This document shows, one piece after another, positions 1,791 through 55,037 of a stretch of DNA of 64,000 nucleotides. This DNA is from an uncultured bacterium. Its GTDB lineage: Bacteria; Zhuqueibacterota; QNDG01; CAYUAG01. The notes beneath the pieces were generated by a model, which was not told the origin of the DNA, made no database searches, and saw only the letters and a list, made by a program, of their open reading frames with translations. The stretch is taken from NCBI GenBank assembly GCA_964554015.1, contig CAZKMO010000003.1, positions 127-64,126 of the forward strand, given 5' to 3'. Positions within the stretch are counted from its first letter, which is position 1. Each line of letters opens with the position of its first letter. Both the position numbers and the translations under genes were made by a program.

Positions 1791-1832
1791 TTTTCCTCTC
1801 AACAGGTAATTTTATTTTCGTTATTATTTTCG

Positions 1833-1847: not shown

Positions 1848-1996
1848 AGAATAGTAATCCAGTATACCTGTAAATACTATTTCTATAATTTACTGTAATT
1901 TATAAAGATAGATTGTTATATTAAAAATTTCTGATGTAAAAAATCGTATTTATATAACATTTTTTGGATTATTTCTGACCAATATATTTTATTCGA

Positions 1997-3364: not shown

Positions 3365-5315
3365 TTAATTCTCCTTCAGGTAAAATTATAGTAAATGTCG
3401 TACCCTTATTCAGTTCACTCTGCACATCTATATCACCATGATGATCTTCAATAATTCTATAGACAATTGAAAGCCCCATGCCTAATCCATCAGATTTGGT
3501 GGTGAAAAACGGATCAAAGATTGATTCTAATTTGTCGGAATGAATTCCTTTTCCGGTATCGGTAATATTAATCTGAACAAATGAATCTTGTTTTATCCAT
3601 TTATCTGCTTTTTTTATTAATTTGGGGATGGAAAATTTAATTGGTTTTGCAGATACCGTTATGGATCCATTTTTATTGATGGCATCAATGGCATTAAGCA
3701 TTAAATTTAAAAATACTTGCTGTATTTGTTGGGGATCAATAATCACGATAGGGAGATCATCATCAATATCTTCTATATAATTAATATTATTGGTTTTAAA
3801 TTTTTTGATTATAAGATTTATTACTTCATGAATCACTTTTTTGATATCATATGACTTTCTATCTGGGGGTTTGGGTCGTGCGAAAGCAACGATCGCCTTT
3901 AATAATTCATCTAATCTGTTTACTTGGTTTATAATTCGGGTTAAATATTCTAATCTTGAATCATCCGGTTCAAATTCATCTTTACAGGTCTGGCTTAAAC
4001 TTTTTATTCCAGCCAAAGGATTTTTTATTTCATGAGCTATGCCGGAAGCCAATATTCCCAGGGAAGCCAGTCTTTCCATTCTCTTTACTTCATTATGCAT
4101 CTGTTTTAATTCCGATATATCCCGGAAAGAAATAATGGTTCCAACTTTATTATTTAGATTATCGATTCTATCGGTAGTCGTAAATCCTATGGAAATTTTT
4201 TCTCCGGATTTAACAGTTAATTGAGTTTCACGGCTATACGGTAAAGCTCCTGGCTTGGTAGAACTCATGAGAAGTATATCTACTTCCTTGGGGATAAGTA
4301 CGGATTTTATTTTTTCTCCCAATACTTCCTCAGATTTCCATCCCAATATTCTCTCACCACCGGTATTAAGTGACGTTATAAAACCATTTAAATCAACGGT
4401 GAGCAGACCAGCGTCCATACTCTGAATGATACTTTCGTTAAAATTTTTTAATTCTAAAATTTCATTTTCCATCATTTTTTGTTCTGTAACATCCCGGGCT
4501 ATTCCCATGGAGCCCACAATTGAACCATGTTCAAAAATGGGAGTGATATTAAAGGATAGAATATAACAATCAGAAATATTACTCATGATTTGAGCCTGAA
4601 ATATTCTGGCTCTTCCTTGATGCACCAGCTGATAATTTTTTATGGCTCGTTTACGGTCTTGTTCTAGAATTAATTCTGAAAAATCTCTTTGCAGCCATTC
4701 TTTCTTTTTAAAACCGGTTAAGGGTTTGAACCGATTATTTAAATATACAAATTTTCCATTCTGATCAAGAGTGAAAATAAAATCATTTGCATTTTCAAGT
4801 AAGTCTCTATATCTGTATTCAGATCGCTTTATCTCCTGGCTTAATTCTTTATTTTTTCTTACCGATTCATCTGCAACCATAATATTTTCTAAACACTCAC
4901 GAAACCGCTTAGTATCAGAAAAATAGCTAAACCAGCCGCTAATTCCTAAGGTATAAAATTCCTTACTGTATTTAAAACGAACTTCTCTATCTGAGATAAT
5001 AATAAAAGGAATATTATGATACTCGGCTAATGATTTACTTTGTCTAAACTGTTTAAAGACTGCACAGCCATCCATATCCTCGGTTACGTAATCAGAAATA
5101 ATTAGAGCAGGGCGAATTTGAGGAATTAGTTCAATAGCCTTTGATCCTGAAGATATGGTTATGATCTCAGAATTTGTCTTTTCTAATATTTCTTTTAATT
5201 GATTGGATATTGCCTTCTTTGATTCAATAACCAATAGTTTTTTTTGTTTGAAAAAATCATCCATACTATTCTCGTTTATTATTTCTTTCAACTCATATAT
5301 AGTATTAGTTAGCAC
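3357..5315 (-). CDS. Cytoplasmic sensor histidine kinase: N-terminal receiver-like domain, two PAS domains, HisKA and HATPase_c
   Basis: H-box ASGIAHEIKNPLAGI; N/G boxes NLMLNAIDA, DTGKGI, GLGMGL; PAS-like blocks. Overlaps the downstream gene by 8 nt. Confidence 0.85.
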   Translation of the reverse strand: MLTNTIYELKEIINENSMDDFFKQKKLLVIESKKAISNQLKEILEKTNSEIITISSGSKAIELIPQIRPALIISDYVTEDMDGCAVFKQFRQSKSLAEYHNIPFIIISDREVRFKYSKEFYTLGISGWFSYFSDTKRFRECLENIMVADESVRKNKELSQEIKRSEYRYRDLLENANDFIFTLDQNGKFVYLNNRFKPLTGFKKKEWLQRDFSELILEQDRKRAIKNYQLVHQGRARIFQAQIMSNISDCYILSFNITPIFEHGSIVGSMGIARDVTEQKMMENEILELKNFNESIIQSMDAGLLTVDLNGFITSLNTGGERILGWKSEEVLGEKIKSVLIPKEVDILLMSSTKPGALPYSRETQLTVKSGEKISIGFTTTDRIDNLNNKVGTIISFRDISELKQMHNEVKRMERLASLGILASGIAHEIKNPLAGIKSLSQTCKDEFEPDDSRLEYLTRIINQVNRLDELLKAIVAFARPKPPDRKSYDIKKVIHEVINLIIKKFKTNNINYIEDIDDDLPIVIIDPQQIQQVFLNLMLNAIDAINKNGSITVSAKPIKFSIPKLIKKADKWIKQDSFVQINITDTGKGIHSDKLESIFDPFFTTKSDGLGMGLSIVYRIIEDHHGDIDVQSELNKGTTFTIILPEGELNE

Positions 5316-6768
5316 ACTGCAAAGTAAAATAAAATATTGATCCTCTCCCTAAAGTACTGTTAACTTTAAGTTCGGAATTATGTTGATCAATAATTTCCTT
5401 GGTTAAAGCCAAACCTAATCCAGAACCAAATTCACTGTCTTCATCAGTATGATTAACCCGGTAAAATTTTCTGAATATTTTATCCAAAGAATCTTCCGGT
5501 ATTCCATATCCATTATCAATAACACTAATAGTTATAACTTTATCTTTTTGTTCCAGCTTAATAGTGATTTCAGAACCGGAAGGGCTGTATTTAATGGCAT
5601 TGGATATTAAATTCTGTATTACTTGTTCAATAAGTTGTTGATCACCATAAGCCAAACAAATATGGGGTAAACAAGTTTTCTCAATTTGTATGTTCTTGCT
5701 CTGGGCAGTTGACATATATGAAGTAATAATCTTATCAACCAATTGTTCAATATTAAAGGGATGGATTTGGATTTGAATTTTACCTTCTTCCAGTTTGGAA
5801 AGATCGAGAAATTTATTTACCAATTTAACCAATCGTGATGTTTCATTTAAAATGATTGTAGAATATTCTTTGACCTTAACATTCCTGACATTTAAATCAC
5901 GAAGCAGATCACTAAATCCATAAATAGAGGTTAAAGGTGATTTTAGTTCATGGGCAACCATAGTCACCAGTTCAGATTTCATTTTATTGGCTATATATTC
6001 ATTAGTAATATCTCTTATCACAGTGACGATTCCTACAAATTCATTATTATCACTATAGATTCTGGAACCTGATGCCTGAAAATATTTTTTTGTGGCTATA
6101 TTTTTAATCCGCAAATCAAATATAATATCTTCAGTTTGTTTTCCATCCCGCAATTTTTTAAAAAGATTTAAAATTTGTTTAATTTTGATAATTTTTTTTA
6201 AATTTTGATTAAATACTTCCTTTTCCGTAAAACCAAATAATGTTTCAGCAGCTGGATTCACCATTAAAATCCTATATTGAGTATCTGTTACAATAACGCC
6301 ATCTACAATATTGCGTAAAATTCCTTCAATTTTATTCTTGGCATTAATAATTCCAGATAGGTCTATTTTTTTTATTCTCTCCATTTCATGAGCCATATAG
6401 ATAAACATTTTCTGAATTCTGTCCATATATTTATTTTTAGTAGCAGGAAAATTATTATTAAATTTACCCCTGGCAATATCAGTTGTATTATAAATTAATA
6501 TTCCTAAGGATTTACTTAACAGCAGTAAACAAAAATAAGTTATAATGAAAGATAAAAAAATAAGGATAGGAAAAAATGTAATATAGTTTTTTAAGCCGCA
6601 ATCATTTATAAAAGAAAAAACTGTATCTGACTGGGTTTCAATAGGTATTATTTTTACATCTATTAAAAAAATGAATAATAGTATTAACAATAGTAAAAAC
6701 ACCAGGTTTATAAACCAGATTCCAATAAAGGTTAATTTGTTGTATTTTATTTTTTTAAAAAAATGCAC
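5305..6768 (-). CDS. Membrane-anchored sensor histidine kinase (transmembrane N-terminus, PAS, HisKA, HATPase_c)
   Basis: Hydrophobic N-terminus; H-box MVAHELKSPLTSI; NLISNAIKY, DNGYGI, GSGLGL. Confidence 0.85.
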   Translation of the reverse strand: MHFFKKIKYNKLTFIGIWFINLVFLLLLILLFIFLIDVKIIPIETQSDTVFSFINDCGLKNYITFFPILIFLSFIITYFCLLLLSKSLGILIYNTTDIARGKFNNNFPATKNKYMDRIQKMFIYMAHEMERIKKIDLSGIINAKNKIEGILRNIVDGVIVTDTQYRILMVNPAAETLFGFTEKEVFNQNLKKIIKIKQILNLFKKLRDGKQTEDIIFDLRIKNIATKKYFQASGSRIYSDNNEFVGIVTVIRDITNEYIANKMKSELVTMVAHELKSPLTSIYGFSDLLRDLNVRNVKVKEYSTIILNETSRLVKLVNKFLDLSKLEEGKIQIQIHPFNIEQLVDKIITSYMSTAQSKNIQIEKTCLPHICLAYGDQQLIEQVIQNLISNAIKYSPSGSEITIKLEQKDKVITISVIDNGYGIPEDSLDKIFRKFYRVNHTDEDSEFGSGLGLALTKEIIDQHNSELKVNSTLGRGSIFYFTLQCAN

Positions 6769-6787
6769 TGCACATCCTAATCTTACA

Positions 6788-7753
6788 TTAAAGAGTTTCG
6801 GATCGGTTTCTTCCCTTATTTTTTGCTTTGTAAAGTGCCTTATCTGCTAATTGAATTATCTGTTCTTCGTCCTCCACATCATCAGGAAAAGTGGCTATGC
6901 CTATACTAATGGTTATTTTTTCCCCCGGTAATCTGTTTCTTAAATGAAAATCATATTCTTCGACTAAAATGCGCAATTTTTCGGCTACTATACTAGAGGC
7001 CTTTTTATTAGTCCCGGGTAGGATTATGGCAAATTCTTCTCCTCCATAACGGGCAATGGTATCTACTTCTCTGAGATTTACAGTTAATAATTCAGCAAAT
7101 TGTTTAAGAACCCTGTCACCATTAGGGTGACCAAAAGTATCATTATAACGTTTAAAATGATCTATATCTATCATTAAAAGCGAAACCGGCAGTTTAAATC
7201 TCTTAGATCGTATGATCTCATAATGAATTTGATTTTTAAAAGCTCGGTAATTAAATAATTCTGTCAGTCCATCTGTAACTGCCAATTTTTTTAACTTTTC
7301 CTTAACAATTTCTAACTCATTATATTTTTGCTCTAGGGTTTTATGAAGATGTTTAATACGTATCAAGGATTTAACCCTGGTTATTAATTCTACCCGGTTA
7401 TAAGGTTTAGTAATGAAATCATCCGCTCCTGCACTGGTTCCCTTGATTCTTTCATCGTCTCCCCGTAAAGCCGTAACCAGAATTATGGGGATAAAACTGG
7501 TATTTTTAGATGATTTTAATTTTTTACAAATGGTAAATCCATCAGTATCCGGAAGAACTATATCTAAAATTATTATACTGGGAGAAAATTGATTCACTTT
7601 CTTTATTGCCTCAACTCCGGTTGAAGCCATTTCTATATCATATCCTTCGGAAGAAAGATAGGTTTTTAATAATAAACGATTATTGGTCTCATCATCAACA
7701 ACAAGAATAATATCTTTTTTATCTGATGAATTTTTATTTTTACTATCATTCAT
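6788..7753 (-). CDS. Response regulator with GGDEF output domain (PleD-like diguanylate cyclase)
   Basis: Receiver ILVVDDE...ILDIVLPDTDG; active-site RYGGEEF with an upstream RxxD I-site (REVD). Confidence 0.85.
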   Translation of the reverse strand: MNDSKNKNSSDKKDIILVVDDETNNRLLLKTYLSSEGYDIEMASTGVEAIKKVNQFSPSIIILDIVLPDTDGFTICKKLKSSKNTSFIPIILVTALRGDDERIKGTSAGADDFITKPYNRVELITRVKSLIRIKHLHKTLEQKYNELEIVKEKLKKLAVTDGLTELFNYRAFKNQIHYEIIRSKRFKLPVSLLMIDIDHFKRYNDTFGHPNGDRVLKQFAELLTVNLREVDTIARYGGEEFAIILPGTNKKASSIVAEKLRILVEEYDFHLRNRLPGEKITISIGIATFPDDVEDEEQIIQLADKALYKAKNKGRNRSETL

Positions 7754-7765: not shown

Positions 7766-9217
7766 TTAACTATCTTTCTGGAATTTGACATCCAGATCCC
7801 TGGCAGCCATTCCTTCATTCAAACGAAAAACAGGCGTTTTAGTAGGAGCATTCCTGACAATTTCAGGATTTTCCTCGGTTTCCCGGGCAATGGTGATCAT
7901 CGCATCGATAAACTTATCCAGTTCTTCTTTGGATTCGGTTTCAGTTGGTTCTATCATCAAAGCTTCTTGAACAACAAGAGGGAAATAAACAGTAGGTGCA
8001 TGAATGCCAAAATCCAGTAAATGCTTTGCCATATCCAGGGTTTTAACCCCTTTTTCTTTTTGCCAGTTTCCCGAAAGTACAAACTCATGCATGGCATGCT
8101 GGGTATAAGGAAGGAGGTAATACTTTTCTAATTTTCTCATAACGTAATTGGCATTAATTATGGCATTTTTGCTCACCTTTTTTAGACCTGTAGATCCAAG
8201 CATTCTTATATATACATAGGCTTTAACCATTATGTTAAAATTTCCAAAAAATTCATGTATTCTTCCAATTGATTTTGGTCTGTCATAGTCAAAAATAAAT
8301 GTATTATTTCTTTTGGATATTACGGGGACAGGGAGATAATCAGATAATTCTGAGGTAACCCCAACTGGTCCGCTGCCTGGTCCACCTCCCCCGTGAGGTG
8401 TGGAAAAAGTTTTATGAAGGTTAAAATGGACAATATCAAATCCAATATCTCCCGGACGCACAATTCCCAGCAAAGCATTTAGATTAGCTCCATCCATATA
8501 AAGAAGGGCACCAATGTCATGCATTAAGGAAGCAATTTGTTTAATATCCTTTTCAAATAACCCCAGCGTATTGGGATTAGTAACCATAAAACCAGCAACA
8601 TCCTTATTGAGTTTTTTCTTTAAATCATCAACATCGATGAGACCTTTATTATTGGATTTTACTTGAACCAGATCATAACCAGATACAGTTACATTAGCCG
8701 GATTAGTACCATGAGCTGAATCTGGAATGAGTATAGTTTTGCGAAGATTACCCTTGGTATCATGATAAGCTCGAATAATTTTAATACCGGTTAATTCGCC
8801 TTGAGCACCAGCTGATGGTTGTAAGGTAATCTCCTCCAATCCCGAGATGATCTTAAGATATTCACTAAGTTCACCCATTATCTGAATTGCTCCCCAGATA
8901 TCCTCTTGATGCTGAAATGGATGTATTTCTGTAAAACCTGGTAAAGAGGAAAGTTTATCATTAATTTTGGGATTATATTTCATAGTACATGAGCCCAAGG
9001 GATACATTCCCTTATCAATATGATAATTTAAGTTGGAAAGATGAATAAAATGCCTAATTACGTCAGATTCACTTATTTCAGGTAAGTCGGGATTTTCATT
9101 TCTAGAAAATTTTGAAGGGAGTATATCTTCCAGAGATTTTTCCGGAATATCCAAGGGGGGTAAAGTAAAACCACTTCGATTTTTCACACTAATTTCAAAT
9201 AAAAGAAATTCTGACAA
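7766..9217 (-). CDS. gcvPB: Glycine dehydrogenase (decarboxylating) subunit 2 (P-protein C-terminal half)
   Basis: N-terminal MSEFLLFEIS... is typical of GcvPB, and the length (483 aa) fits the family. Confidence 0.8.
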   Translation of the reverse strand: MSEFLLFEISVKNRSGFTLPPLDIPEKSLEDILPSKFSRNENPDLPEISESDVIRHFIHLSNLNYHIDKGMYPLGSCTMKYNPKINDKLSSLPGFTEIHPFQHQEDIWGAIQIMGELSEYLKIISGLEEITLQPSAGAQGELTGIKIIRAYHDTKGNLRKTILIPDSAHGTNPANVTVSGYDLVQVKSNNKGLIDVDDLKKKLNKDVAGFMVTNPNTLGLFEKDIKQIASLMHDIGALLYMDGANLNALLGIVRPGDIGFDIVHFNLHKTFSTPHGGGGPGSGPVGVTSELSDYLPVPVISKRNNTFIFDYDRPKSIGRIHEFFGNFNIMVKAYVYIRMLGSTGLKKVSKNAIINANYVMRKLEKYYLLPYTQHAMHEFVLSGNWQKEKGVKTLDMAKHLLDFGIHAPTVYFPLVVQEALMIEPTETESKEELDKFIDAMITIARETEENPEIVRNAPTKTPVFRLNEGMAARDLDVKFQKDS

Positions 9218-9338
9218 TTCAATCTCCAGTAAAAATTTTATACATTTCAGTTCTTATAATATCAAAATATTATCTTGTTTTGTCAAGTCTTTTCAGCTAT
9301 TATTTTTGCTTACCTTGGGAAAAAATAAGTATTTTTCA

Positions 9339-11123
9339 TCAGGCTATTTGTTTAATAACAGAAGGTACTGTTTGTTGTTTATTAGCTTGAATATGAAAAT
9401 CCCAAAGAATTTGAATTATTTTTCTGGCTGAGACATTTTCTAATATATCTTTGGCAATCTCTTCACATTCGGTAATTTTTAAAACTCTAATTCTTTCTTT
9501 CAGTTCTGGAATTAATAAAGGTATTAAACTGAAATTTCTTAAACCAAAACCCAATAAAAGACCGGTATATAAAGGATTGGCAGCAAGTTCTCCACATACA
9601 GAAACAGGTTTTCCATAGTTGTTTGCTACTTTGATAATATTATTTATCAATCTTAAAACAGCAGGATTATTAGGATTATAAAACTTTGCTACTTTTTCAT
9701 TGTTTCTATCCACTGCCAGAGTATACTGAATAAGATCATTAGTGCCAATACTAACAAAATCTGTAAATTTTATTATTTGATCAATTACAATAGCTACCGA
9801 AGGTACTTCTATCATTATACCTGATTTAATACTCTTATCAAAAGGAATATTTTCAGAAATCAACTCATCTTTAGTCTCTTCTACAATTTTATTTATTTTT
9901 ATAACCTCTTCATAACTTGAGATCATAGGAAATAATATGCGAACATTCCCAAATATGCTAGCACGAAGGATGGCTCTCAACTGTGCTTTAAATACATCTT
10001 CCTCTTGAAGAAATATGCGGATAGATCTCCATCCCAAAAAGGGATTTCTTTCTTCTTTTACATTCTGAAAAGGAAGAAATTTATCACCCCCTAAATCCAA
10101 GGTACGTATAGTAACGATCTTATCCTTCATTTTCGTAACTGCAGTTTTGTAAATTTCAAACTGTTCCTCTTCGGTAAGCAGTCTTCCGGCTATGAGAAAA
10201 GGTAATTCAGTTCGGAATAATCCTACTCCATCGGCTCGATATTTCAAGGCTAAATTTACATCTGAAATCATGGCAATATTTGCTTTTAATGATATCCAGG
10301 CACCATCGCTGGTTACAGGATCCAATTCCCGGTCTTTATCCAATCGCTGTAAATAAATATCAAAATTCTTTTTTCTTTGTTGATAGACTTTAAGTAGTTG
10401 TTTAGGAGGTTTTATGTGTAAGGTACCACTGTTCCCATCCACAATCACTTTATCGCCATTGTTTACTCGGTCAGTTAGTTTTTCTATTCCCACAATAGCA
10501 GGAATTCCCATGGATCGGGCCAGAATGGAGGTATGGGATGTCTCTCCTCCTAATTCTGTAATAAAAGCGACAATTTTTGATCGATCTATCCGTATAGTAT
10601 CAGAAGGTTTAAGATTATGTGAAACAATTTCTGAATTTTTTTGATGAGGTATTTTAACCTCTTCAGATTGCAGAAGAATTTTTAATATTCTTACTGCCAC
10701 ATCTTCAATATCTATGATTCTCTGCTGAAAGTAGTCATTATTCATTTTTTTAAATGAAGTTCGAAGTTTTTCAATCTTTTCCCGTAGTAAAAATTCAGCA
10801 TTTTTTTTAATTTTTTTTATAGCAGCCGGCATATCCTCCTGAAAAAAAGTATCTTTTAATATAGTCAATTGCGCTTCAAAAATTTGTGCTTCTTTGTCTC
10901 CGATATCTTTCTTAACTCTTTCCTGGTATTCAATAAGCTGCCGATTTACATCTTTCAATGCCAGGCGATAGCGGCTTATTTCCTCCTCAATGTTGCTTTT
11001 TTTTAAAGAGATTTCAATGATTTCATCCCACGGACTTTCCAGAATAACCACAGTTCCAATGGCTATACCTTCTGAAACAGGTAATCCTTGTACAGTAACT
11101 TCATTGTTAGTCTTATTATTCAA
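9339..11123 (-). CDS. ptsI: Phosphoenolpyruvate-protein phosphotransferase (PTS enzyme I)
   Basis: Phosphohistidine region GGETSHTSILARSMGIPAIVG and PEP-binding SIGTNDLIQYTLAVDRNN; 594 aa. Confidence 0.85.
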   Translation of the reverse strand: MNNKTNNEVTVQGLPVSEGIAIGTVVILESPWDEIIEISLKKSNIEEEISRYRLALKDVNRQLIEYQERVKKDIGDKEAQIFEAQLTILKDTFFQEDMPAAIKKIKKNAEFLLREKIEKLRTSFKKMNNDYFQQRIIDIEDVAVRILKILLQSEEVKIPHQKNSEIVSHNLKPSDTIRIDRSKIVAFITELGGETSHTSILARSMGIPAIVGIEKLTDRVNNGDKVIVDGNSGTLHIKPPKQLLKVYQQRKKNFDIYLQRLDKDRELDPVTSDGAWISLKANIAMISDVNLALKYRADGVGLFRTELPFLIAGRLLTEEEQFEIYKTAVTKMKDKIVTIRTLDLGGDKFLPFQNVKEERNPFLGWRSIRIFLQEEDVFKAQLRAILRASIFGNVRILFPMISSYEEVIKINKIVEETKDELISENIPFDKSIKSGIMIEVPSVAIVIDQIIKFTDFVSIGTNDLIQYTLAVDRNNEKVAKFYNPNNPAVLRLINNIIKVANNYGKPVSVCGELAANPLYTGLLLGFGLRNFSLIPLLIPELKERIRVLKITECEEIAKDILENVSARKIIQILWDFHIQANKQQTVPSVIKQIA

Positions 11124-11660: not shown

Positions 11661-12947
11661 TCATTTATTTTTTAATATTTTATTGACCATTTTTATAGCG
11701 CAGTATTCTCCACACATGGAACAGACATCTTGAGTATGTGGTTTGCCTTCCTCCCGTAACTTCTGAGCTAAATCTGGATCAAGGGATAAATCAATCTGTT
11801 TTTTCCAGTCAAGCTCTTTCCTGGCTTGGGAAATTTGGTTATCCCACTCAATTGCACCCGGTAATCCTTTACTTATATCCCCTGCGTGAGCAGCAATTCT
11901 GGCAGCAATGACTCCTTGTCTAACATCTTCTTTATTGGGAAGTTTTAAATGTTCACCCGGTGTTACATAACAGAGGAAATCAGCACCATTTGCAGCTGCA
12001 ATACTTCCTCCAATAGCTGAGGTGATATGATCGTATCCCGGTGCTATATCTGTTACTATGGGCCCTAAAACATAAAATGGAGCATTATCACATATTTGTT
12101 TCTGTAATTTAATATTTGTTTCAATTTGATGTAATGGTATATGCCCAGGTCCCTCAATCATGACCTGAACATTTTTATCACGGGCTTTTTTAGTCAACTC
12201 ACCCAGGATAATCAACTCTGTGATTTGGGCACGATCAGTGGCATCATGCACTGAACCTGGTCTTAATCCATCACCCAGACTTAAAGTAACATCATATTTA
12301 TAAGCAATTTTCAGTAAACGTTCAAATTCCTCATATAAGGGATTTTCCTTTTCATTAGCTATCATCCAGGTAGTAAGAAATGATCCTCCCCTACTGACAA
12401 TATTAGTCAATCTGCCCTGTTTAGTAAGTCTTTCTATGCTTGCCAGAGTAACGCCGCAATGTACCGTGAAAAAATCAACTCCTTCTTCAGCTTGCTGTTC
12501 TAAAACCTGGAAAATGTCATCAGAAGTCATATTAATAAGCGCACTTTTCTTTTCGATGGTTTCAATAACTGTTTGATAAATTGGTACGGTTCCAATCACC
12601 ACTGGTACCTGTTGCATTATTTTTTTTCTGATTTCCCTTAAATTTCCTCCGGTGGAAAGATCCATTATGGTATCTGTTCCTGCTTTCACTGCAACTTTTG
12701 CTTTTTCTACTTCTTTTATTATATCTGCATAATCCTGAGAAGTTCCAATATTAGCATTCACTTTGGTTCGAACTTGTTTCCCCACCGCCACCGGTTTTAT
12801 ATTGTTATGCTTTTTATTTTTTAATATAACCACTTCACCTTGGCTGATCAGCTTTATTAAATGATTTATTTCAATATTTTCATTTTTTGCCACTGCTTTC
12901 ATTTCTGAAGTAATTTTATTATTTCGAGCTGCTTCTAATTGTGTCAT
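11661..12947 (-). CDS. thiC: Phosphomethylpyrimidine synthase ThiC
   Basis: Radical-SAM ThiC family with C-terminal CSMCGEYCA cluster motif; 428 aa. Confidence 0.88.
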   Translation of the reverse strand: MTQLEAARNNKITSEMKAVAKNENIEINHLIKLISQGEVVILKNKKHNNIKPVAVGKQVRTKVNANIGTSQDYADIIKEVEKAKVAVKAGTDTIMDLSTGGNLREIRKKIMQQVPVVIGTVPIYQTVIETIEKKSALINMTSDDIFQVLEQQAEEGVDFFTVHCGVTLASIERLTKQGRLTNIVSRGGSFLTTWMIANEKENPLYEEFERLLKIAYKYDVTLSLGDGLRPGSVHDATDRAQITELIILGELTKKARDKNVQVMIEGPGHIPLHQIETNIKLQKQICDNAPFYVLGPIVTDIAPGYDHITSAIGGSIAAANGADFLCYVTPGEHLKLPNKEDVRQGVIAARIAAHAGDISKGLPGAIEWDNQISQARKELDWKKQIDLSLDPDLAQKLREEGKPHTQDVCSMCGEYCAIKMVNKILKNK

Positions 12948-13117
12948 CTTTTAAACCTTACCCTTCCCTATTAACTATTTTTGTATTTTAATGTACAAAA
13001 ATATCCCATCAAATTCAATACAAAATTTCTGGAATGATGATTGGCTTTATACTAAAAAATAGTTATTTTTAAGGTAGAGTTGATATAAATAATTATATAT
13101 AAATAAAGGAGGTACCA

Positions 13118-14803: not shown

Positions 14804-15092
14804 GTTTTTGTTTGTTTAAACCTATTAGAGAGGGTCTGTAAAAAAGTAGGAAAAAATTTTAAACGCAGAACCCGACAAGAACGACATAAAAGCTGTAATA
14901 AATTAATAATTATAGATTTATTTTATGATGAACTTTATGACTTCTCTGCCCGCACTGCGTTTTTTTAAATGCCCCTTTTTCAATAAATGCAATTATAAAG
15001 TGTTTACTCTTCAAAAATTTATTTATTAATTCAATTTTAATAGAGTGCTATCGTAATAAAAAAACGGGCGTTTTTAATATTTAAGTGATCTT

Positions 15093-15659
15093 CTATAGTA
15101 ACATCAATTCTATTAGCTTATCTTTTATCTGATCCGGATTTAATACATAATCAACACATCCGGTTTCAATTGCTTCTTTGGGCATACCGAAAATAATACT
15201 TGAATATTTATCCTGAGCTATGGTTGTTCCATAGATATGGTTAATATGAATAATTCCTTCTCTTCCATCTCGTCCCATTCCTGTTAGAATAATTCCTATA
15301 ATTTTCATATTAATTTTACTAACAACTGATTTCATAGTGACATCAATGGAAGGACAAACAAAATTAACCTTTTCACCTTTATATAATTTTATATTGGTAT
15401 TATTAATTAATTCAAGATGGTATTCACTGGGTGCTATATATACTTTTCCGTTGGTAAGCTCTACCCCATCCTCAGGAATAATCACTTCCATCTTAGTCAA
15501 TCCATCTAACTCTTTGGTAAAAGATTTATTTACAAATTCAGGCATATGCTGAATAAGGACTATTGCTCCATTTAGTACTGGTAATTCGGAGAATATTTCT
15601 CTTAATATACGAGGACCTCCTGCTGAAGATCCAATTATTGCAATCTTTGATGCTGCCAT
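15093..15659 (-). CDS. cheB: CheB methylesterase catalytic domain. It is in the same reading frame as the upstream receiver ORF and separated from it only by one TAA.
   Basis: IAIIGSSAGGPRIL is the typical CheB methylesterase N-terminus. No RBS of its own. Confidence 0.8.
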   Translation of the reverse strand: MAASKIAIIGSSAGGPRILREIFSELPVLNGAIVLIQHMPEFVNKSFTKELDGLTKMEVIIPEDGVELTNGKVYIAPSEYHLELINNTNIKLYKGEKVNFVCPSIDVTMKSVVSKINMKIIGIILTGMGRDGREGIIHINHIYGTTIAQDKYSSIIFGMPKEAIETGCVDYVLNPDQIKDKLIELMLL

Positions 15660-15668
15660 AGTGTAATA

Positions 15669-16043
15669 TTATTCCAAATACGATAAATATTTCTTAATGA
15701 GTTTTATTAAATCCTCGGAATCAAAAGGTTTGCGGATATAATCCAGTACATACTCTTTTAAATTATCCATTTTTTCGCCAGGCTGATCCTTCCCGGTTAA
15801 CATAAGTATAATCACATTCTTTATATAGCCACGTTTAACAATTTCGTTTATAGTATCCCAGCCGTCCATTTCGGGCATTATTATATCCATTAATATTATT
15901 CCCTTAAATCCTTTTTCTAGCTCTTTCAGACATGCCTTACCACTTTCTGCAGTTCTAACCGTTAAGTTATTCCGGATAATAATTTTTTTACAGGTTTTCA
16001 AAACCGCTAAATCATCATCAACAATCATGACTTCTTTTTCCAT
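15669..16043 (-). CDS. cheB: CheB N-terminal receiver domain, ended by a TAA at 15669-15671
   Basis: VMIVDDD...ILMDIIMPEMDG...LMLTGK...RKPF receiver motifs. Confidence 0.8.
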   Translation of the reverse strand: MEKEVMIVDDDLAVLKTCKKIIIRNNLTVRTAESGKACLKELEKGFKGIILMDIIMPEMDGWDTINEIVKRGYIKNVIILMLTGKDQPGEKMDNLKEYVLDYIRKPFDSEDLIKLIKKYLSYLE

Positions 16044-16071
16044 AAAGATTTCTCCTTGAAAAAAATAAGAA

Positions 16072-16578
16072 TTATATAGTCAGCTTTTTCTTTGCTTTTT
16101 TAGGTTTTCTTCCAAATAATGGATAAATTTTAATATGTCTGTCTTTTCCCTCTTTTCCATAACTTTGAGTTTTTATACCATTTCTATTCTTTAAATAATC
16201 GTGGACAACAAATCTTTCATAAGCACCCATGTGTGGCAAGTTTATTATATTACCATTCATTATCACTTCTTGAGCTTTCTGTTCAGCTAGTCTTTTTAAA
16301 TTTCCTACCGGATATACTTTTAAGGTATAATCCTTTTCTCTTTTATAGGTTCTGACTTTATATTCTGAATCGAGTGAAAATTTTTTCTTTATTTGTTTAA
16401 TCTGATAAGAATTTATATTATTAATTACATAAGGCTGTATTGAATCTATTAATTCATTTTTAATTTTATCCATGAGTGTATCAAAATCTTTAATTGATTT
16501 ATTAGTATTATCATTTGATTTCAGGTTAGGTTTTATACTGCTTTGCATTACCAACTCCTTATTATTCAGCATAATCAT
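16072..16578 (-). CDS. R3H-domain (Jag-like C-terminus) nucleic-acid-binding protein with a lysine-rich tail
   Basis: GAYERFVVHDYLKN...IKTQSYGKEGKDRHIKIY resembles the Jag/R3H domain (YERRIIH...TES.GEG..R). Confidence 0.45.
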   Translation of the reverse strand: MIMLNNKELVMQSSIKPNLKSNDNTNKSIKDFDTLMDKIKNELIDSIQPYVINNINSYQIKQIKKKFSLDSEYKVRTYKREKDYTLKVYPVGNLKRLAEQKAQEVIMNGNIINLPHMGAYERFVVHDYLKNRNGIKTQSYGKEGKDRHIKIYPLFGRKPKKAKKKLTI

Positions 16579-18364: not shown

Positions 18365-19420
18365 TTAAATGGAAGCATCCAAATCAAGCATTTTAGTCCC
18401 TTTGATGTATTCTTTGGAAACCGGTTTGGATATTCGAGCTAGTTTCTGGGTTATACTTTTAATTCTTAAGGCATTATCAATAATAATATTCAAGCGTTTT
18501 CGGATATCCTCATCAGTAATTCTCTCATCCTGAAGAAGAAACTGGGCATGTCCAAGTATCGGGACTAAAGGATTGTTTATGGCATGATTTACCGTAATTG
18601 CAGTTTCAAGAATGGTTGCTAATCTTTCTGAACGTTGTATAGATGAACTATCTACATCTTCCTTTTGGTGCATGGTAAGCGCTAAACAGCCGATTACATT
18701 CCCATTAATATCTTTCATTGGTGATAAAGAAAGACTAACTGGAATTTTATTTTTTGTTTTATCTATTAAAAATGTCTTATAATTGGTTAATTTTCCGTCT
18801 TTGTTGACTGTATTAAATATTTTTAACAGTTCTGAAGATCCATCATTTAATAACTCACTTATATTTAAACCTATTAATTCTTTGAATTTATATTTTAATA
18901 ATCGTATACTTGCTTTATTACAATAAGTAATATATCCCTTATTATCAGCAGTAAATATTGACTCTACTGAACTTTCAAGTACATTTTCCAGAAAATATTT
19001 ACCATTATTCATGGTTTTTTGAAATTTTTTATTGTTCTTGGAGACAACATTTGAAATTATAATTTTGTTAATAAAATTAATTAAATCATTGGTGTGGAAA
19101 GGTTTATTAAAATGTGAGTAGAAACCTTGTTTATTTAAGGTTGACTCGTTTGTTGTGCCATTGGAGGTTAAAAGAATAAAAGGAATATTTTTATGATTAT
19201 TTTGAGAATGTATCTTATTAATAAAATCTTCCGCACTCATGTCGGACAATCTTTCATCTACAAAAATAATATCAAATATATTATTTGAAGATTTTTTTAA
19301 ACCTGAGGATCCACTATCTGCAGTTATACAATGAAAAGATGAATTTGATAAAGTTTTCTGAACATCAGTGCATAGTGAATTATCACTATCAATATATAAT
19401 ACTTTTTTTAATGATTTCAT
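18365..19420 (-). CDS. Signalling protein with an atypical receiver, a PAS domain and a DHp (HisKA) domain, ending without any ATPase domain
   Basis: H-box ITVNHAINNPLVPILGHAQFL sits at the C-terminus with no N/G1/G2 boxes after it. The 4-nt ATGA overlap with the upstream regulator suggests translational coupling. Confidence 0.65.
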   Translation of the reverse strand: MKSLKKVLYIDSDNSLCTDVQKTLSNSSFHCITADSGSSGLKKSSNNIFDIIFVDERLSDMSAEDFINKIHSQNNHKNIPFILLTSNGTTNESTLNKQGFYSHFNKPFHTNDLINFINKIIISNVVSKNNKKFQKTMNNGKYFLENVLESSVESIFTADNKGYITYCNKASIRLLKYKFKELIGLNISELLNDGSSELLKIFNTVNKDGKLTNYKTFLIDKTKNKIPVSLSLSPMKDINGNVIGCLALTMHQKEDVDSSSIQRSERLATILETAITVNHAINNPLVPILGHAQFLLQDERITDEDIRKRLNIIIDNALRIKSITQKLARISKPVSKEYIKGTKMLDLDASI

Positions 19421-19794
19421 ACTCTTTTTTCTAATCTTTCCTCAACCAACTGTTTTAAAGTGAAAAGATCCCAGGGTTTGGATAAATACAAAGTACCATC
19501 TTCTTTATTCTCACTAATATTTCCAAATTTTAGATCAAGATAACCAGAAGTTAAAACTCTGATTGTTTCCGGATTTTTATTGCGAATATCGGTTAATAAA
19601 TCAGAACCTGAGTCATCCGGAAGTTTCAAATCAGTCAGTATAAAATCTACTTTATGTTTTTTCATAATATTTCTCGCCTCTTCTGCTTTCGTTGCTGTAT
19701 ACAATTCATACTCCTCATCTTTGAAAAGATCAACTAGAATGTCGAGTATTTCTTTTTCATCATCGACAAATAACAGGGATTTTACTTTTTTCAT
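19417..19794 (-). CDS. Single-domain CheY-like response regulator
   Basis: LLFVDDEKE, ILTDLKLPDDSG, LTSG and SKPW motifs; RBS GGAGGG upstream. Confidence 0.85.
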   Translation of the reverse strand: MKKVKSLLFVDDEKEILDILVDLFKDEEYELYTATKAEEARNIMKKHKVDFILTDLKLPDDSGSDLLTDIRNKNPETIRVLTSGYLDLKFGNISENKEDGTLYLSKPWDLFTLKQLVEERLEKRV

Positions 19795-19847
19795 TATACC
19801 CTCCGGTTTATAGTAAATATTACCTACTCAAATTCATTTCAAAAAAA

Positions 19848-19862
19848 GCAACATCTATGCCA
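19848..19862 (-). promoter_or_regulatory. Candidate sigma-54 promoter for the regulator / PAS-DHp operon
   Basis: Minus-strand TGGCATAGATGTTGCT (GG-N10-GC), about 50 nt upstream of the ATG at 19794 and directly downstream of a sigma-54 activator gene. Confidence 0.55.
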
Positions 19863-19994
19863 TAAATGTACTAACCGGATAAATATAATGATATCAGGTA
19901 TTTAGATACATTCTAATTACAAAAATTATACTTTAAATATTTTAATAAAAGGCAAGCTTTTCCTGCAGGATACGGATAGTTTTTCCGTTTTGAA

Positions 19995-21365
19995 TTATAT
20001 ATCTATTCCCTCTTTACGATATTCATTTAATTTATTTCGAAGTGTCCTAACACTTATTCCCAAGCTTTCTGCAGTTTCTGTCCTATTACCGTCAAACTGT
20101 TTTAACTTCTGTAGAATCATAACTTGTTCAATTGCTCGTAAAGTCATATCTTTGGAAAAACTATCTGTTTCTTCACGAACATATTGATCCTGAAGAGAAA
20201 AGTGTTTGAGTTCTAAGGTTTTACTCTGAGGACCGGATAATACGACTGCTCTTTCAACACAATTTTCAATTTCTCTCACATTACCCGGCCATTTTCTGTT
20301 GATTAAAATCTGTAATGCTTTATCAGAAATTTTCTTTTCTGCATAATTATTTTCTTTACAGTATAATTTTATAAAATGGTTGATTAATAAAGGAATATCT
20401 TCTCTTCTTTCCGCTATGACGGGTACTTTAATGGGAACAACATTCAACCTATAAAAAAGATCTTCTCTAAATCTATTTTCCTTAACTTCTTTTTTTAAAT
20501 CTTTATTCGTCGTAGCAATTATCCTCACATCAATAGGTATTACTTTACCACTCCCTACTCTTTCAATTTCCTTTTCTTGTAAAACTCGTAAAAGTTTTGC
20601 TTGAAGTCCGAAACTTATTTCAGAGATTTCATCCAAAAGAATAGAACCACCATCTGCCAGTTCAAATCGTCCTTTACTGGTTTTATATGCACCCGTAAAA
20701 GCTCCTTTTTCATGGCCGAATAGTTCGCTTTCCACCAAACTTTCTGGTAAGGAGGCACAATTCGTAGTAATGAAGGGTGCGTTTTTTCTATTACTGTTAT
20801 AATGAATTGATCTAGCAATAAGTTCTTTTCCAGTGCCACTTGGCCCTTGAATTAGTATAGTGGCTTTACTCTTGGCCACCATTTCAATAGTATTAAAAAT
20901 CTTGTCCATTGGTTTACTTTGGCCAATAATATTCTTAAAACTAAATTTTTTATTTAATTCCGACCGTAAATACTTATTCTCATCTTTTAAATCTTCAAAT
21001 TCAAAATATTTTTTTACCACAATTTTAATTTCGTCGATCTCGAATGGCTTGGCAATATAATCAAATGCACCATCTTTCATGGATTTTACTGCACTTTTTA
21101 TGGAACCATAAGCAGTAATCATAATAACACCAATTTCAGGATATTTTGATTTAATTTTTTCGAGAATTTCCATACCGCTAATATCCGGAAGCCGTATATC
21201 AGTTATAACAAGATCAAAGTCATCCGAACTTATCATTTTAAATGCTTGTTCACCATTCTCTGCAGTTTCCACGGTGTATTTTTCTTTCTCAAAGGTATCC
21301 TTTAACAATTCTCGAATCAATTCCTCATCATCAATAACTAATATGTTCTTATTTTTTTTCTTCAA
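19995..21365 (-). CDS. Sigma-54-dependent response regulator (NtrC/Fis family)
   Basis: Receiver ILVIDDEE...ITDIRLPDISG; GPSGTGKE; ESELFGHEKGAFTGA; C-terminal TAESLGISVRTLRNKL helix-turn-helix. Confidence 0.9.
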   Translation of the reverse strand: MKKKNKNILVIDDEELIRELLKDTFEKEKYTVETAENGEQAFKMISSDDFDLVITDIRLPDISGMEILEKIKSKYPEIGVIMITAYGSIKSAVKSMKDGAFDYIAKPFEIDEIKIVVKKYFEFEDLKDENKYLRSELNKKFSFKNIIGQSKPMDKIFNTIEMVAKSKATILIQGPSGTGKELIARSIHYNSNRKNAPFITTNCASLPESLVESELFGHEKGAFTGAYKTSKGRFELADGGSILLDEISEISFGLQAKLLRVLQEKEIERVGSGKVIPIDVRIIATTNKDLKKEVKENRFREDLFYRLNVVPIKVPVIAERREDIPLLINHFIKLYCKENNYAEKKISDKALQILINRKWPGNVREIENCVERAVVLSGPQSKTLELKHFSLQDQYVREETDSFSKDMTLRAIEQVMILQKLKQFDGNRTETAESLGISVRTLRNKLNEYRKEGIDI

Positions 21366-21376
21366 TGATTTTCCTA

Positions 21377-22036
21377 TTATATTTCGATTTTTAAAATATT
21401 AATTCCATCATTTTTTGATAACGCTGAATATTTTCCTTTTAACAAACCTACCATATTTTGGGTAATGGCAAAACATAATCTTGCATAAAGGTATCGGGAT
21501 TCCTTCATTAAATTTTTTATGTAGTCAGATATATCCGTATTATTTTTAATATCTTTTTCGAAATAAATTTTGATTGTAAGTTTTTTTCCCTTGGATAAAG
21601 TAACCAAGATTTTTTTTATTTTGCTATTAATTTCCTGTAAAAATTGTATTGCATTTCTAAAAAGTTCTTCCAAAATATCTTGATCAGATATTATTTCAAT
21701 ATACTTATCTTCAAGAGATTTATCAAAATCAAGCTTTTTTATTAAATCTTCATCATTACTGGATATATTTTTTAAAATTTCTCTAAACAAATATTCGATC
21801 TTCACTTTCTCTTCTTGAAGCTCTCTCATTCTAACCAGAGACATTAATTTTAAGGTTATTTCATTCACTCCAATAACACCATCATTAATTTTTTTTACAT
21901 ATCGCATTTTAGGATCATTAGAATTTAATTCTTTTTCCAGAAGAGTAGCATAGCCACCTATCCCTCCAAGTCCGTTTTTAATTTTATGGATTACATCAGC
22001 AATTAATTTATTAATAAATATATATTTAGTATACAT
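21377..22036 (-). CDS. Small DHp/HisKA-like protein with a degenerate or absent ATPase domain
   Basis: H-box-like ADVIHKIKNGLGGIGGYATLL; possible N-box LFRNAIQFL, but no DxGxG or GxGxG boxes. Wedged between a hybrid kinase and a sigma-54 activator (11-nt gap). Confidence 0.45.
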   Translation of the reverse strand: MYTKYIFINKLIADVIHKIKNGLGGIGGYATLLEKELNSNDPKMRYVKKINDGVIGVNEITLKLMSLVRMRELQEEKVKIEYLFREILKNISSNDEDLIKKLDFDKSLEDKYIEIISDQDILEELFRNAIQFLQEINSKIKKILVTLSKGKKLTIKIYFEKDIKNNTDISDYIKNLMKESRYLYARLCFAITQNMVGLLKGKYSALSKNDGINILKIEI

Positions 22037-22053
22037 AGTTAATTATATGCACT

Positions 22054-24516
22054 TTACTCATTAATATATGAACGAATTTTAGCAAGCAAGGGACGTATTT
22101 CAAAGGGTTTTTCAATAAATCCAGTCACTTTCCGTTTGTAAATATTTTCAATCTTTTCTTTTTCACCCTTTCTGGAAGTGGCAATAATTTTAACTTCAGG
22201 ATTAATTTTCTTAAACCAGGCTAACACCTTTTTTATGGGCATTCCTCTTAAGGCAATATCAAGAATTATCAAATCAATTCGACTTTTATATTTTTTATAT
22301 ATAGCAATTGCTTCTGAACTATTTTCAGCACTGATAACTTTATATCCATAACGGTTAAGCATCTTCCGAGCTGTCTCTCTGATAATTTTTTCACTATCGA
22401 CCAATAAAATAGTTTCTTTGCCCAGTGAAGGTTTAATATCCTTTTTTGTTTCTATATCAGTTGATTTTCTTTTTTGGGCTGATAGATGAATTTTAAATAC
22501 AGTACCTCTGTTCTTTTCACTAAAGACTGAAATAAAACCAGAATGCTTTCTTATTACATTCTGCACCATAGCCAATCCCATACCTTTACTATTTGAATCA
22601 ACATTTTTGGTAGAAAAATCAGGATCAAAAATTTTACTTTTTATTTCATTACTAATACCTTTTCCATTATCACTTATTTCAATCTGTACATATTTTCCTG
22701 GTTTGGCATTATACATTTTACAGACATTAGTATCATTTAATTCAATATTCCGAGTTTTAAAGAATATTTTACCACCATCAGGTATTGCATCCCTGGAATT
22801 TAAGGCAACCTGTAGTATGGCCTGTTGTATTTGACTTGCATCTGCCCTAATCAAATATACATCCGGATTTAATTCTGCATGTATAGATTTATTATTTTCT
22901 AGCGTTCTGGAAAGTATAGTGGCTACTTCTCTGATTAATTCGTTGACATCAAGAGAATCAACTATGTATGAACTTCCCTTTGAATACGCTGAAAGCCGTC
23001 CGGCCAATTCGGAAGCTTTTTCAGCGGAATTGGAAATTTGTATAATATCATCGTAAAATTGATTATCTTTAGATACTTCTTCTTTTAATAAAGAACTGAA
23101 TCCTAATATGGAAGCAAGCTGATTGTTGAAATCATGAACTATACCACCGGTTAAAATACCAAGAGATTCCATTTTTCTAGCTTGTATTAACTGATCTTTT
23201 AAACGTCGTTCATCACTTTGATTAATCCAATACCATAATTCTGATGTAACATTCTCATGTATTATTTTTGCAATTGAGCATTTTATTTCACATCGACTTC
23301 CATCACTGGTGATTATATTTATATCACAAATTTTATTTTTCTTTTCATTATTACTATTTCTTAACTTATTTATTTCCTCTTGTGATTCTGGAGTAAGAAA
23401 ATCAAATATTTTTCTCCCTTTTAGATTTTCTTGAGTGATTTCCAATATTTCACAAATCCATTCATTAACAAATTCAATTTTATCATTTTTTATGCATAAT
23501 ATACCTAAAAGAGGTGAATTATAAATTGATTTTGTTATATCGTCTGATTGGGGAGTTTTATTAATATTTAATTGAATAATTTTTTGAACAGATTGGACAT
23601 TATTTTCCAAGAAGGTAATATCTCGTTCCTCCCACATTTCTTGTTTTTTACCCAAAACGACTATATACCCTTTAATATTATTTTCTTCAGGTATTGGGAC
23701 AATTAGTGATGATTCATACTCAGTTAAAGAAACAAGATAATTTTTCAATTCCTCAGAGGTAATTCCCAAAACAAAATCAGATACGTTTTTTATTAAACAC
23801 ATACCATTTTTATTCACTGAAGCTGATGAAACTTCCGGGCAGGCATCGATCACTCTATTCCAAATTTGTGGACTCCAAAAAATATATTCATCTTTTTTAT
23901 TTTCATAAAGTTTATTGTCATGGGAAGATTTTTTTAAGAAGATATTTCCCAATGATTGTTTATCAGTTACTATCCCTATTTCCCAGGAATCTAAAATATT
24001 TTGAATATCAATCATGATTTTTTTAAGATCAGAGATGCTTACTTCATGATTTACAATTTTTTGAGCAATTTTATTAGAAAAGTCTCTCTCTTGTTCTAAG
24101 CAGGCAAGTTCAGTTATATCCTGAATATATAATCGAATAAATTTAGGTTTCCCGGAATCATCCAAATGTGCCAAACCATTAATTCTTACTGAAAAACTTT
24201 CTCCTTTCCCTTGCATGGTTGCTCTAATACTACGAATATATCCTTTATTGAGGCATTGTTTAAGAGAGTCTTGAATTATTTCTAAATCTTTTTCTATGAA
24301 AAAATCGATAAATTTTTTACCTAAAATCTCAATATCGGAAAAATTCATTTTTTCCTGGGCGGTAACATTACAGGATTCAATCTGATAAGTATCATTAATA
24401 AGAAAATAAAGAATATCAACTTTAGAATAAAATTCTTTATACACCCTTTCCGGAAGTTGGGAAAAATTAAGATTTTTATCAGTTATTTTGGGTTTTAATT
24501 CATCCATTTTTAGCAA
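22054..24516 (-). CDS. Cytoplasmic hybrid sensor histidine kinase (PAS/GAF-like sensory region, HisKA, HATPase_c, C-terminal receiver)
   Basis: H-box GGIVHDFNNQLASILGFSSLL; SDNGKGI, GMGLAM; C-terminal receiver ILLVDSE...ILDIALRGM. Confidence 0.85.
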   Translation of the reverse strand: MLKMDELKPKITDKNLNFSQLPERVYKEFYSKVDILYFLINDTYQIESCNVTAQEKMNFSDIEILGKKFIDFFIEKDLEIIQDSLKQCLNKGYIRSIRATMQGKGESFSVRINGLAHLDDSGKPKFIRLYIQDITELACLEQERDFSNKIAQKIVNHEVSISDLKKIMIDIQNILDSWEIGIVTDKQSLGNIFLKKSSHDNKLYENKKDEYIFWSPQIWNRVIDACPEVSSASVNKNGMCLIKNVSDFVLGITSEELKNYLVSLTEYESSLIVPIPEENNIKGYIVVLGKKQEMWEERDITFLENNVQSVQKIIQLNINKTPQSDDITKSIYNSPLLGILCIKNDKIEFVNEWICEILEITQENLKGRKIFDFLTPESQEEINKLRNSNNEKKNKICDINIITSDGSRCEIKCSIAKIIHENVTSELWYWINQSDERRLKDQLIQARKMESLGILTGGIVHDFNNQLASILGFSSLLKEEVSKDNQFYDDIIQISNSAEKASELAGRLSAYSKGSSYIVDSLDVNELIREVATILSRTLENNKSIHAELNPDVYLIRADASQIQQAILQVALNSRDAIPDGGKIFFKTRNIELNDTNVCKMYNAKPGKYVQIEISDNGKGISNEIKSKIFDPDFSTKNVDSNSKGMGLAMVQNVIRKHSGFISVFSEKNRGTVFKIHLSAQKRKSTDIETKKDIKPSLGKETILLVDSEKIIRETARKMLNRYGYKVISAENSSEAIAIYKKYKSRIDLIILDIALRGMPIKKVLAWFKKINPEVKIIATSRKGEKEKIENIYKRKVTGFIEKPFEIRPLLAKIRSYINE

Positions 24517-24536
24517 CTATTAAAAAATTTGCTTTC

Positions 24537-45266: not shown

Positions 45267-45276
45267 GAAATCCTCT

Positions 45277-55026: not shown

Positions 55027-55037
55027 CGAGTGCTCCT

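Follow-up and report, generated by a model that had tools for sequence, protein, structure and literature searches.

The receiver and methylesterase reading frames at positions 15093–16043 of the window, the whole 64-kb stretch of DNA from an uncultured bacterium that was analyzed, are almost certainly two real, conserved genes and not a lesion. The first encodes a single-domain response regulator (REC), and the second encodes a stand-alone CheB-type methylesterase/deamidase (CheBc). The pair is most likely a phosphorylation-controlled methylesterase/deamidase split over two polypeptides. The best overall explanation, which we consider highly probable, is that separate REC and CheBc genes form an old conserved module in which REC would be phosphorylated by a kinase and would gate the enzyme in trans. 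The original prediction described this locus as a cheB gene split by a single in-frame TAA. That framing is misleading: the receiver is not of the CheB type, stand-alone proteins are the closest relatives of each half, and nothing was cut, so that the module does not represent a canonical CheB that has been divided. A true two-piece CheB was one of the options listed, and it is the only one with support. The two separate genes stand, but the receiver does not belong to CheB. The supposed defect is an ordinary conserved gene organization.

Gene layout and domain content of the REC/CheBc pair

The features of the junction, all encoded on the minus strand, are:

16072–16578, minus strand: R3H-domain gene, KhpB/Jag-like; longest ORF 168 amino acids; Pfam R3H
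16052–16057, minus strand: Shine-Dalgarno-like AAGGAG, 8 nt 5' of the REC start codon, read from the sequence
15669–16043, minus strand: REC (single-domain response regulator), 124 amino acids; ATG 16043–16041, TAA 15671–15669; Pfam Response_reg
15660–15668, minus strand: noncoding 9-nt spacer TATTACACT from the REC stop to the methylesterase start
15093–15659, minus strand: CheBc (stand-alone CheB-type methylesterase/deamidase), 188 amino acids; ATG 15659–15657, stop 15095–15093; Pfam CheB_methylest
15624–15626, minus strand: catalytic Ser12 of the CheBc triad
15546–15548, minus strand: catalytic His38 of the CheBc triad
15267–15269, minus strand: catalytic Asp131 of the CheBc triad

The coordinates and the common frame of the two ORFs given in the original prediction are borne out by the sequence, which reads as a single continuous translation, ...KKYLSYLE*YYTMAASKIAIIGSSAGG..., with the junction spelled ...LSYLE*YYTMAAS.... 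The ORFs had been placed 12 nt apart; this figure holds if the stop codon is counted, but the actual gap is 9 nt. The gap is unremarkable because tight spacing or overlap is common among neighboring genes in the window (20 of 51 same-strand neighbor pairs are 12 nt or less apart or overlap). CheBc was correctly said to lack a ribosome-binding site: no Shine-Dalgarno-like motif is found upstream of its ORF, and REC has AAGGAG. An R3H-domain gene had also been noted nearby, and the Pfam R3H ORF lies directly upstream of REC at a distance of 28 nt, where it is the first gene of a conserved three-gene block. The operon boundaries of R3H-REC-CheBc are putative and were drawn from gene spacing alone. 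A promoter and terminator scan gave no excess over shuffled sequences and no terminator, and Rfam had no match in the whole window, at the junction, or in the thiC leader.

Sequence comparison identifies CheBc as a stand-alone CheB-type serine hydrolase with the protein-glutamate methylesterase/glutamine deamidase fold. The ORF matches Pfam CheB_methylest (PF01339) over positions 2–174 of 174 (E 8e-54); the domain is complete and is the sole Pfam match. The Ser12/His38/Asp131 triad columns are invariant in an alignment of 24 sequences, and the solved CheB catalytic domains 3sft (E 1e-40), 1chd, and 1a2o (E 4e-35) all match. Homologues were sought in a 5.8-billion-protein collection, and the best 120 were considered. 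Stand-alone proteins of 181–206 amino acids that contain CheB_methylest only make up 119 of these 120, down to 53% identity. The single fused exception is P0082, a receiver plus methylesterase of 318 amino acids. CheBc has the properties of the stand-alone class, with PF01339 as its only domain and a length in the range of ~180–210 amino acids. A canonical CheB carries an N-terminal receiver on the same polypeptide, but here the TAA and the 9-nt spacer intervene. CheBc scores 189.2 bits against the cut-off of 293 for NCBIfam NF001965 and 178.5 bits against the cut-off of 342 for NF009206, and the sum of the CheBc (189.2) and REC (47.2) bits is still below the 293 required by NF001965. A neighbor-joining tree of the catalytic domains, which carries no support values and is indicative, places the module in a clade of 29 leaves composed of 26 stand-alone proteins, one tandem protein, and a nested P0082/P0244 fusion.

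The REC ORF matches Pfam Response_reg (PF00072) over positions 1–110 of 111 (E 2e-23) and is likewise a complete domain. The phospho-acceptor set, D9/D10/D11, D53 (15885–15887), T83, and K105, is invariant across the alignment of 13 orthologues, and the C-terminal motif KKYLSYLE is conserved. With its acceptor residues intact, REC should be phosphorylatable. The acidic pocket, the Asp, the Thr, and the Lys, combined with the lack of an output domain, assign it to the single-domain response regulators of the 3CG4-like type. All of its 120 closest homologues are single-domain proteins (120/120). The best solved relative is PDB 3cg4_A (E 9e-31), the next match has an E value of 7e-14, and CheB's own receiver is absent among the best 60 PDB matches. 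The CheB model ranked 16th when REC was compared with NCBIfam (47.2 bits), behind FixJ, AtoC, and NtrC-type receivers. With a family-specific REC HMM, the receivers of the module scored 215–236 bits, and those that precede a stand-alone CheBc in L007, L008, and L010 scored 141–166 bits. The REC domains of 63 canonical fused CheBs reached only 17–47 bits with this HMM, and the receiver part of the P0082 fusion reached 31 bits. These comparisons place REC in its own receiver family, that of PDB 3CG4, unlike the REC domain of CheB.

Conservation of the junction in orthologous loci

Orthologous loci were fetched from 86% down to 42% identity, archaeal metagenome-assembled genomes (MAGs) included. 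A metagenome-contig search with a single protein matched three loci. A profile search of genome contigs with the family alignment gave, among the matches listed, mostly canonical fused CheBs, and L007–L010 were informative. REC stops at the same place in every orthologous locus fetched, one codon past a conserved K-x-Y-L-S/D-Y-L (...YLSYLx-stop), and a separate CheBc comes after it. The original prediction had proposed an orthologue comparison as a check, and the outcome, the same split at each locus, is the one that it had named as evidence against its own reading. The arrangements of the two genes are:

Window clade (the window, L001–L004, L087, and L096): REC stop to CheBc start 9 nt
L006: REC stop to CheBc start 15 nt
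L099: REC stop to CheBc start 12 nt
L090/L091: 1-nt overlap of REC and CheBc (−1), TAATG
L092/L093: REC stop to CheBc start 17 nt
L095: REC stop to CheBc start 107 nt
L098: REC stop to CheBc start 595 nt, GTG start
L008 (Geobacter MAG): 14-nt overlap of REC and CheBc (−14)
L010 (Methanoculleus MAG): ATGA overlap of REC and CheBc (−4)
L007: CheBc is an ORF separate from REC

REC and CheBc are in frame in 3 of 10 independent lineages, which is the chance rate (1/3), and the in-frame arrangement therefore carries no weight. The in-frame lineages are the window clade (9 nt), L006 (15 nt), and L099 (12 nt), and none has a second in-frame stop in the spacer. In the other seven lineages, the two genes are out of frame or overlap, and the REC stop and CheBc start codons overlap in three. 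The spacer sequence is not conserved in close relatives (TATTACACT versus TATTCCTTT, ATTACTTCC, and AATACTGTT), and its codons are likewise not conserved (YYT, YSF, ITS, and NTV). Comparison of the window with its relatives shows saturation at synonymous sites (dS 1.1 to >2). The dN/dS values for the same comparisons are 0.055–0.074 for REC and 0.055–0.18 for CheBc, and ratios of about 0.05–0.18 indicate that both genes are under strong purifying selection. The junction DNA is identical base for base in L001 (JGI 3300031653) and L002 (Logan SRR8557366), which come from different projects, and the exact CheBc protein is also present on both contigs.

These data bear on two readings of the TAA as damage. 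A recent nonsense mutation that cut a continuous cheB in two and left a pseudogene in the making would fit two in-frame ORFs that are 9 nt apart, the second without a Shine-Dalgarno motif. We assign it a negligible probability because no orthologue has the stop anywhere else, even at 42–45% identity and in archaeal MAGs, and because spacers and frames differ among them. Synonymous saturation at a dN/dS of 0.05–0.18 in both halves argues against it as well, as do the stand-alone closest homologues of both halves and a receiver that is not CheB-like. The proposal of a sequencing or assembly error fares no better. It is consistent with the in-frame arrangement and nothing more, and it is rendered extremely improbable by the identical junction in two independent assemblies and the stop at that position in every relative. 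Such REC/CheB pairs should be neither flagged as a frameshifted or pseudogenized cheB nor merged during annotation, and neighboring in-frame REC and CheB ORFs can be the native state.

Programmed readthrough confined to the window's own clade would produce some 316-amino acid fused CheB-like protein alongside the separate products. The frame is kept in the window clade, L006, and L099 with an uninterrupted spacer, and the joined protein, with an inter-domain linker of ~19 residues, would resemble a short CheB in length. On the other side, three in-frame lineages out of ten are what chance would give, the spacer codons are not conserved, and the junction contains no Rfam or other RNA element. 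The REC stop is TAA with T or A as the next base, a context in which termination is efficient in E. coli. TAA is also the commonest stop in the window, where it ends 37 of 57 ORFs. We consider readthrough in this clade very unlikely, and as a feature of the family it is contradicted by the seven lineages that are out of frame or overlapping. An alternative genetic code with TAA as a sense codon was ruled out by the same 37 of 57 ORFs.

The REC and CheBc homologue lists appear to have at least 27 contigs in common, implying that the two genes are paired on the same contig. Their pairwise identities co-vary across 13 loci with r = 0.92, and the pair is therefore taken to be inherited as a unit, a correlation that would also be expected from plain vertical inheritance. 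REC and CheBc stay adjacent in KSB1-like bacteria, in a Geobacter MAG, and in a Methanoculleus MAG, although every other neighbor differs. This conservation weighs against the idea that REC and CheBc are co-transcribed neighbors of unrelated function, with a constitutive CheBc and a REC that acts, for example, as a phosphate sink. A receiver that is not CheB-like would be expected from such neighbors, and so would the 107- and 595-nt gaps in L095 and L098 and the stand-alone CheBc of L009, which has no REC upstream. We judge unrelated function to be quite unlikely in view of the retained adjacency, the start/stop overlap in three lineages, and the fused REC-CheBc forms in and around the clade. 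A functional link between REC and CheBc is favored because fused forms exist, both as canonical CheB and as P0082 nested in the clade, which is a 'Rosetta-stone' argument.

Genomic neighborhood and the chemotaxis context

The genes around R3H-REC-CheBc vary, with OMP-TPR and GGT genes in the window and nitroreductase, TonB receptor, and transketolase genes elsewhere. The R3H gene is directly upstream of REC in every complete bacterial-clade locus (L003, L004, L006, L087, L090–L093, L095, and L099) and in L089 too. L007, L008, and L010 have no R3H gene, and the pair in these loci is directly downstream of a PAS-HisKA-HATPase sensor kinase. The R3H protein matches Pfam R3H (PF01424) at residues 94–153 (E 1.7e-12), has no Pfam KH or Jag_N match, and scores 39.7 bits against the cut-off of 145 for NCBIfam Jag_EloR. 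Judging from the orthologue alignment, translation may actually begin at Met11, near 16548. An AF2 model (pLDDT 81.6) has a beta-alpha-beta-beta unit preceding R3H. The model aligns with T. thermophilus KhpB/EloR (9lrg) over 143 columns (Foldseek E 3e-6, probability 1.0) with a TM score of only 0.37–0.43. The gene has a dN/dS of 0.16–0.18, and the protein has a conserved basic tail, GRxPKKAKKKL. Its product is presumably a small KhpB-like RNA-binding protein. The conserved AEQKAQE helix of the R3H protein was considered as an MCP-type methylation site, but by eye it does not fit [ASTG][ASTG]xx[EQ][EQ]xx[ASTG][ASTG].

A cluster of two-component genes identified by Pfam lies upstream of the block in the window:

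18365–27005, minus strand: two-component gene cluster
18365–19420, minus strand: REC-PAS-HisKA
19417–19794, minus strand: REC (cluster member)
19995–21365, minus strand: sigma54 response regulator
21377–22036, minus strand: HisKA-only protein
22054–24516, minus strand: hybrid PAS kinase 1
24537–27005, minus strand: hybrid PAS kinase 2

The order of this cluster is kept in L003, L004, and L006 but not in the more distant L090, L092, and L095. Its products are candidate phospho-donors for REC. More two-component genes occur farther along the window at 1392–7753.

The original prediction also stated that no cheA, cheW, cheR, or MCP gene lies in the window, and this was confirmed. CheA, CheW, CheR, MCPsignal, and flagellar genes are all missing among the 58 ORFs of at least 90 amino acids in the 64 kb. 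The 6–20-kb flanks of 13 related loci likewise contain no CheA, CheW, CheR, MCP, or flagellar genes. These counts cover the 64-kb window and the fetched flanks, and che genes may sit elsewhere in the genomes. The main competing explanation is that the pair is a two-piece version of an ordinary adaptation enzyme for chemotaxis, in which CheA phosphorylates REC, CheBc demethylates MCPs, and the genes for both partners lie elsewhere in the genome. In its favor, CheBc is clearly homologous to the CheB catalytic domain and keeps the triad, and stand-alone CheB is known in chemotaxis from C. jejuni, whose CheB lacks the RR domain and functions in that process (bioRxiv 10.1101/2023.01.06.523011). Genes for flagella and MCPs, along with che genes, occur in some KSB1 clades (PMC9012183). 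The lack of such genes in the window and flanks counts against a chemotaxis role, as do the conserved neighbors (a KhpB-like gene in some loci and a PAS histidine kinase in others) and the nearest named relatives of the receiver, which are FixJ/NtrC-type and not CheB or CheY. On balance, we regard a chemotaxis enzyme in two pieces as unlikely but deserving of real weight.

Proposed mechanism and comparison with known systems

In the preferred explanation, an old module of separate genes, we infer that R3H, REC, and CheBc are carried on one transcript. CheBc would probably be translated by coupling, in which ribosomes that reach the REC stop go on to initiate on CheBc, or by initiation independent of a Shine-Dalgarno motif. 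Coupling or such initiation is proposed because CheBc has no Shine-Dalgarno motif and starts 9 nt past the REC stop, and either mode would keep the amounts of REC and CheBc roughly equal. Translational coupling is compatible with the gaps of −14 to +17 nt seen in seven of the ten lineages, and it is not universal because two lineages have the genes 107 and 595 nt apart. A classical sensor histidine kinase, and not CheA, would phosphorylate Asp53 of REC. REC would then gate CheBc noncovalently in trans, closing or opening access to the active site in the way that the covalently attached receiver of canonical CheB does. This analogy to the intramolecular control of CheB comes from gene order alone, with a receiver unlike the CheB REC, and we put the chance that the neighboring receiver controls CheBc in trans at about even. 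If REC does so, the module would be a clean system for studying receiver gating of CheB-type active sites without a covalent linker.

CheBc may act on chemoreceptors whose genes lie elsewhere in the genome or on a protein outside chemotaxis. A substrate outside chemotaxis is a reasonable candidate, although we lean slightly against it; if correct, it would represent a new use of protein glutamate demethylation/deamidation beyond chemotaxis. A more specific proposal is that R3H (or the PAS kinase)-REC-CheBc is a signaling module outside chemotaxis in which the kinase switches the hydrolase via a free receiver in trans, with the KhpB-like machinery as a conceivable target. This proposal is speculative and probably incorrect as a whole.

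Canonical CheB of E. coli and Salmonella (1A2O, 1CHD; NF001965/PRK00742) and the window module have the same catalytic fold, the same Ser-His-Asp triad, and an associated phosphorylatable receiver. Canonical CheB has its receiver fused to the enzyme, whereas the receiver of the module is a polypeptide of its own and belongs to another REC family. CheA and CheR are the partners of canonical CheB; those of the module are a KhpB-like gene or a PAS kinase, without a che context. CheB-CheR-PAS-histidine kinase multidomain fusions, known as Pfam architectures, also tie a CheB-type domain to classical two-component signaling and not to a chemotaxis array built on CheA. These fusions are single large polypeptides that include CheR, whereas no CheR domain was found in the window and related loci.

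Receiver-less CheBs such as that of C. jejuni act alongside CheR, CheA, and MCPs in chemotaxis and are not known to have a dedicated adjacent receiver. Their architecture is the same as that of the window CheBc, a methylesterase domain alone of ~190 amino acids. The window module differs in having a family-specific receiver gene ahead of the enzyme gene and no che genes in the vicinity. Receiver-free CheB domains are already a recognized architecture, and 'CheB, REC-CheB' architectures are tabulated (Table 2, PMC5847659). We found no description of this module in the literature on R3H with CheB or on orphan or non-chemotaxis CheB; no earlier account was found of a CheBc with conserved pairing to a dedicated receiver of non-CheB type, of such a pair linked to either a PAS kinase or a KhpB-like R3H gene, or of its occurrence outside a che context. 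The module is a natural 'unfused CheB' whose receiver comes from another lineage. It occurs repeatedly, in uncultured KSB1-like bacteria as well as in a Geobacter MAG and in MAGs of methanogens, and none of the loci seen has che genes beside it.

The R3H protein shares the R3H domain with KhpB/Jag/EloR (T. thermophilus KhpB, 9LRG), and its model is consistent with a KH-like plus R3H layout. It differs in that it is much shorter, lacks Jag_N, has a sub-cut-off score, and is linked to REC-CheBc; KhpB/Jag genes are typically linked to yidC. The closest solved relative of REC, PDB 3CG4, is a structural genomics entry described as 'CheY-like', and we know of no published function for it. 3CG4 and the window REC are ~50% identical and share the motifs GFxGxxLxDIxMPxMDGWDTI and EYVxDYIxKPF, but the 3CG4 C terminus differs from the YLSYL ending of the window REC.

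R3H gene start and upstream neighbour

Most orthologues of the R3H gene start 10 codons downstream of the start of the longest R3H open reading frame in the window (16548-16578), and a sigma70-like site, TTGACA-18-TATGCT (16597-16568), overlaps this 10-codon N-terminal extension. These two observations point to Met11 (about 16548) as a possible true start of the R3H protein. The count of promoter-like sites around the R3H start was not above that in shuffles. In four lineages (L006, L090, L092, and L099), the R3H gene is immediately preceded by a nitroreductase-family gene, and the two genes overlap in L090 and L092; therefore, the ancestral block may have consisted of four genes that included the nitroreductase-family gene. 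The R3H locus of the window itself lacks this gene.

Intervals flanking the methylesterase gene

The gap between the receiver and methylesterase genes is -14 to +17 nt in other lineages compared to 595 nt in the orthologous locus L098 (624-1218), where the sole called open reading frame in the gap is 45 aa. In the closest annotated relative (L003; GCA_046483025.1), three additional genes (8676-10142) separate the methylesterase gene from GGT: a GIY-YIG gene and two genes that form a nucleotidyltransferase/HepT-like toxin-antitoxin pair. The corresponding interval in the window (14804-15092) is only about 290 nt.

Tandem methylesterases and HisKA proteins lacking HATPase_c

The following open reading frames lie in a distant relative (L007) and in the two-component gene cluster of the window.
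L007 5380-6555, tandem CheB_methylest-CheB_methylest open reading frame, both catalytic domains full
Window 18365-19420, minus strand, 351-aa REC-PAS-HisKA protein, HATPase_c absent
Window 21377-22036, minus strand, 219-aa protein with a weak HisKA match as its sole domain match, HATPase_c absent

The proteins P0241 (405 aa) and P0242 (383 aa) are likewise CheB_methylest tandems with two full catalytic domains in each open reading frame. The first CheB_methylest copy of the L007 tandem has no in-frame ATG, GTG, or TTG start downstream of the preceding stop. Three single-domain receivers and a PAS kinase lie upstream of the L007 tandem.

The two HisKA proteins that lack HATPase_c may be relay phosphotransfer or phosphatase components. 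Both lie between a sigma54 response regulator and a pair of hybrid kinases. This layout is kept in L003, L004, and L006.

RNA elements and redox gene clusters

Rfam searches at the gathering score gave zero matches across the whole window, and a TPP riboswitch was not matched in the thiC leader (12948-13117), even at E up to 1.
11661-12947, minus strand, thiC
42732-47539, NuoEF-like/formate-dehydrogenase-like cluster, near the FlpD/MvhD-like stretch
52294-61498, three FlpD/MvhD-like genes alternating with heterodisulfide-reductase-like Fe-S/CCG and FAD oxidoreductase genes

Such a set of FlpD/MvhD-, heterodisulfide-reductase-, and NuoEF-like/formate-dehydrogenase-like genes is typical of anaerobes that have electron-bifurcating complexes. 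The GC content of the window is 34.9%.
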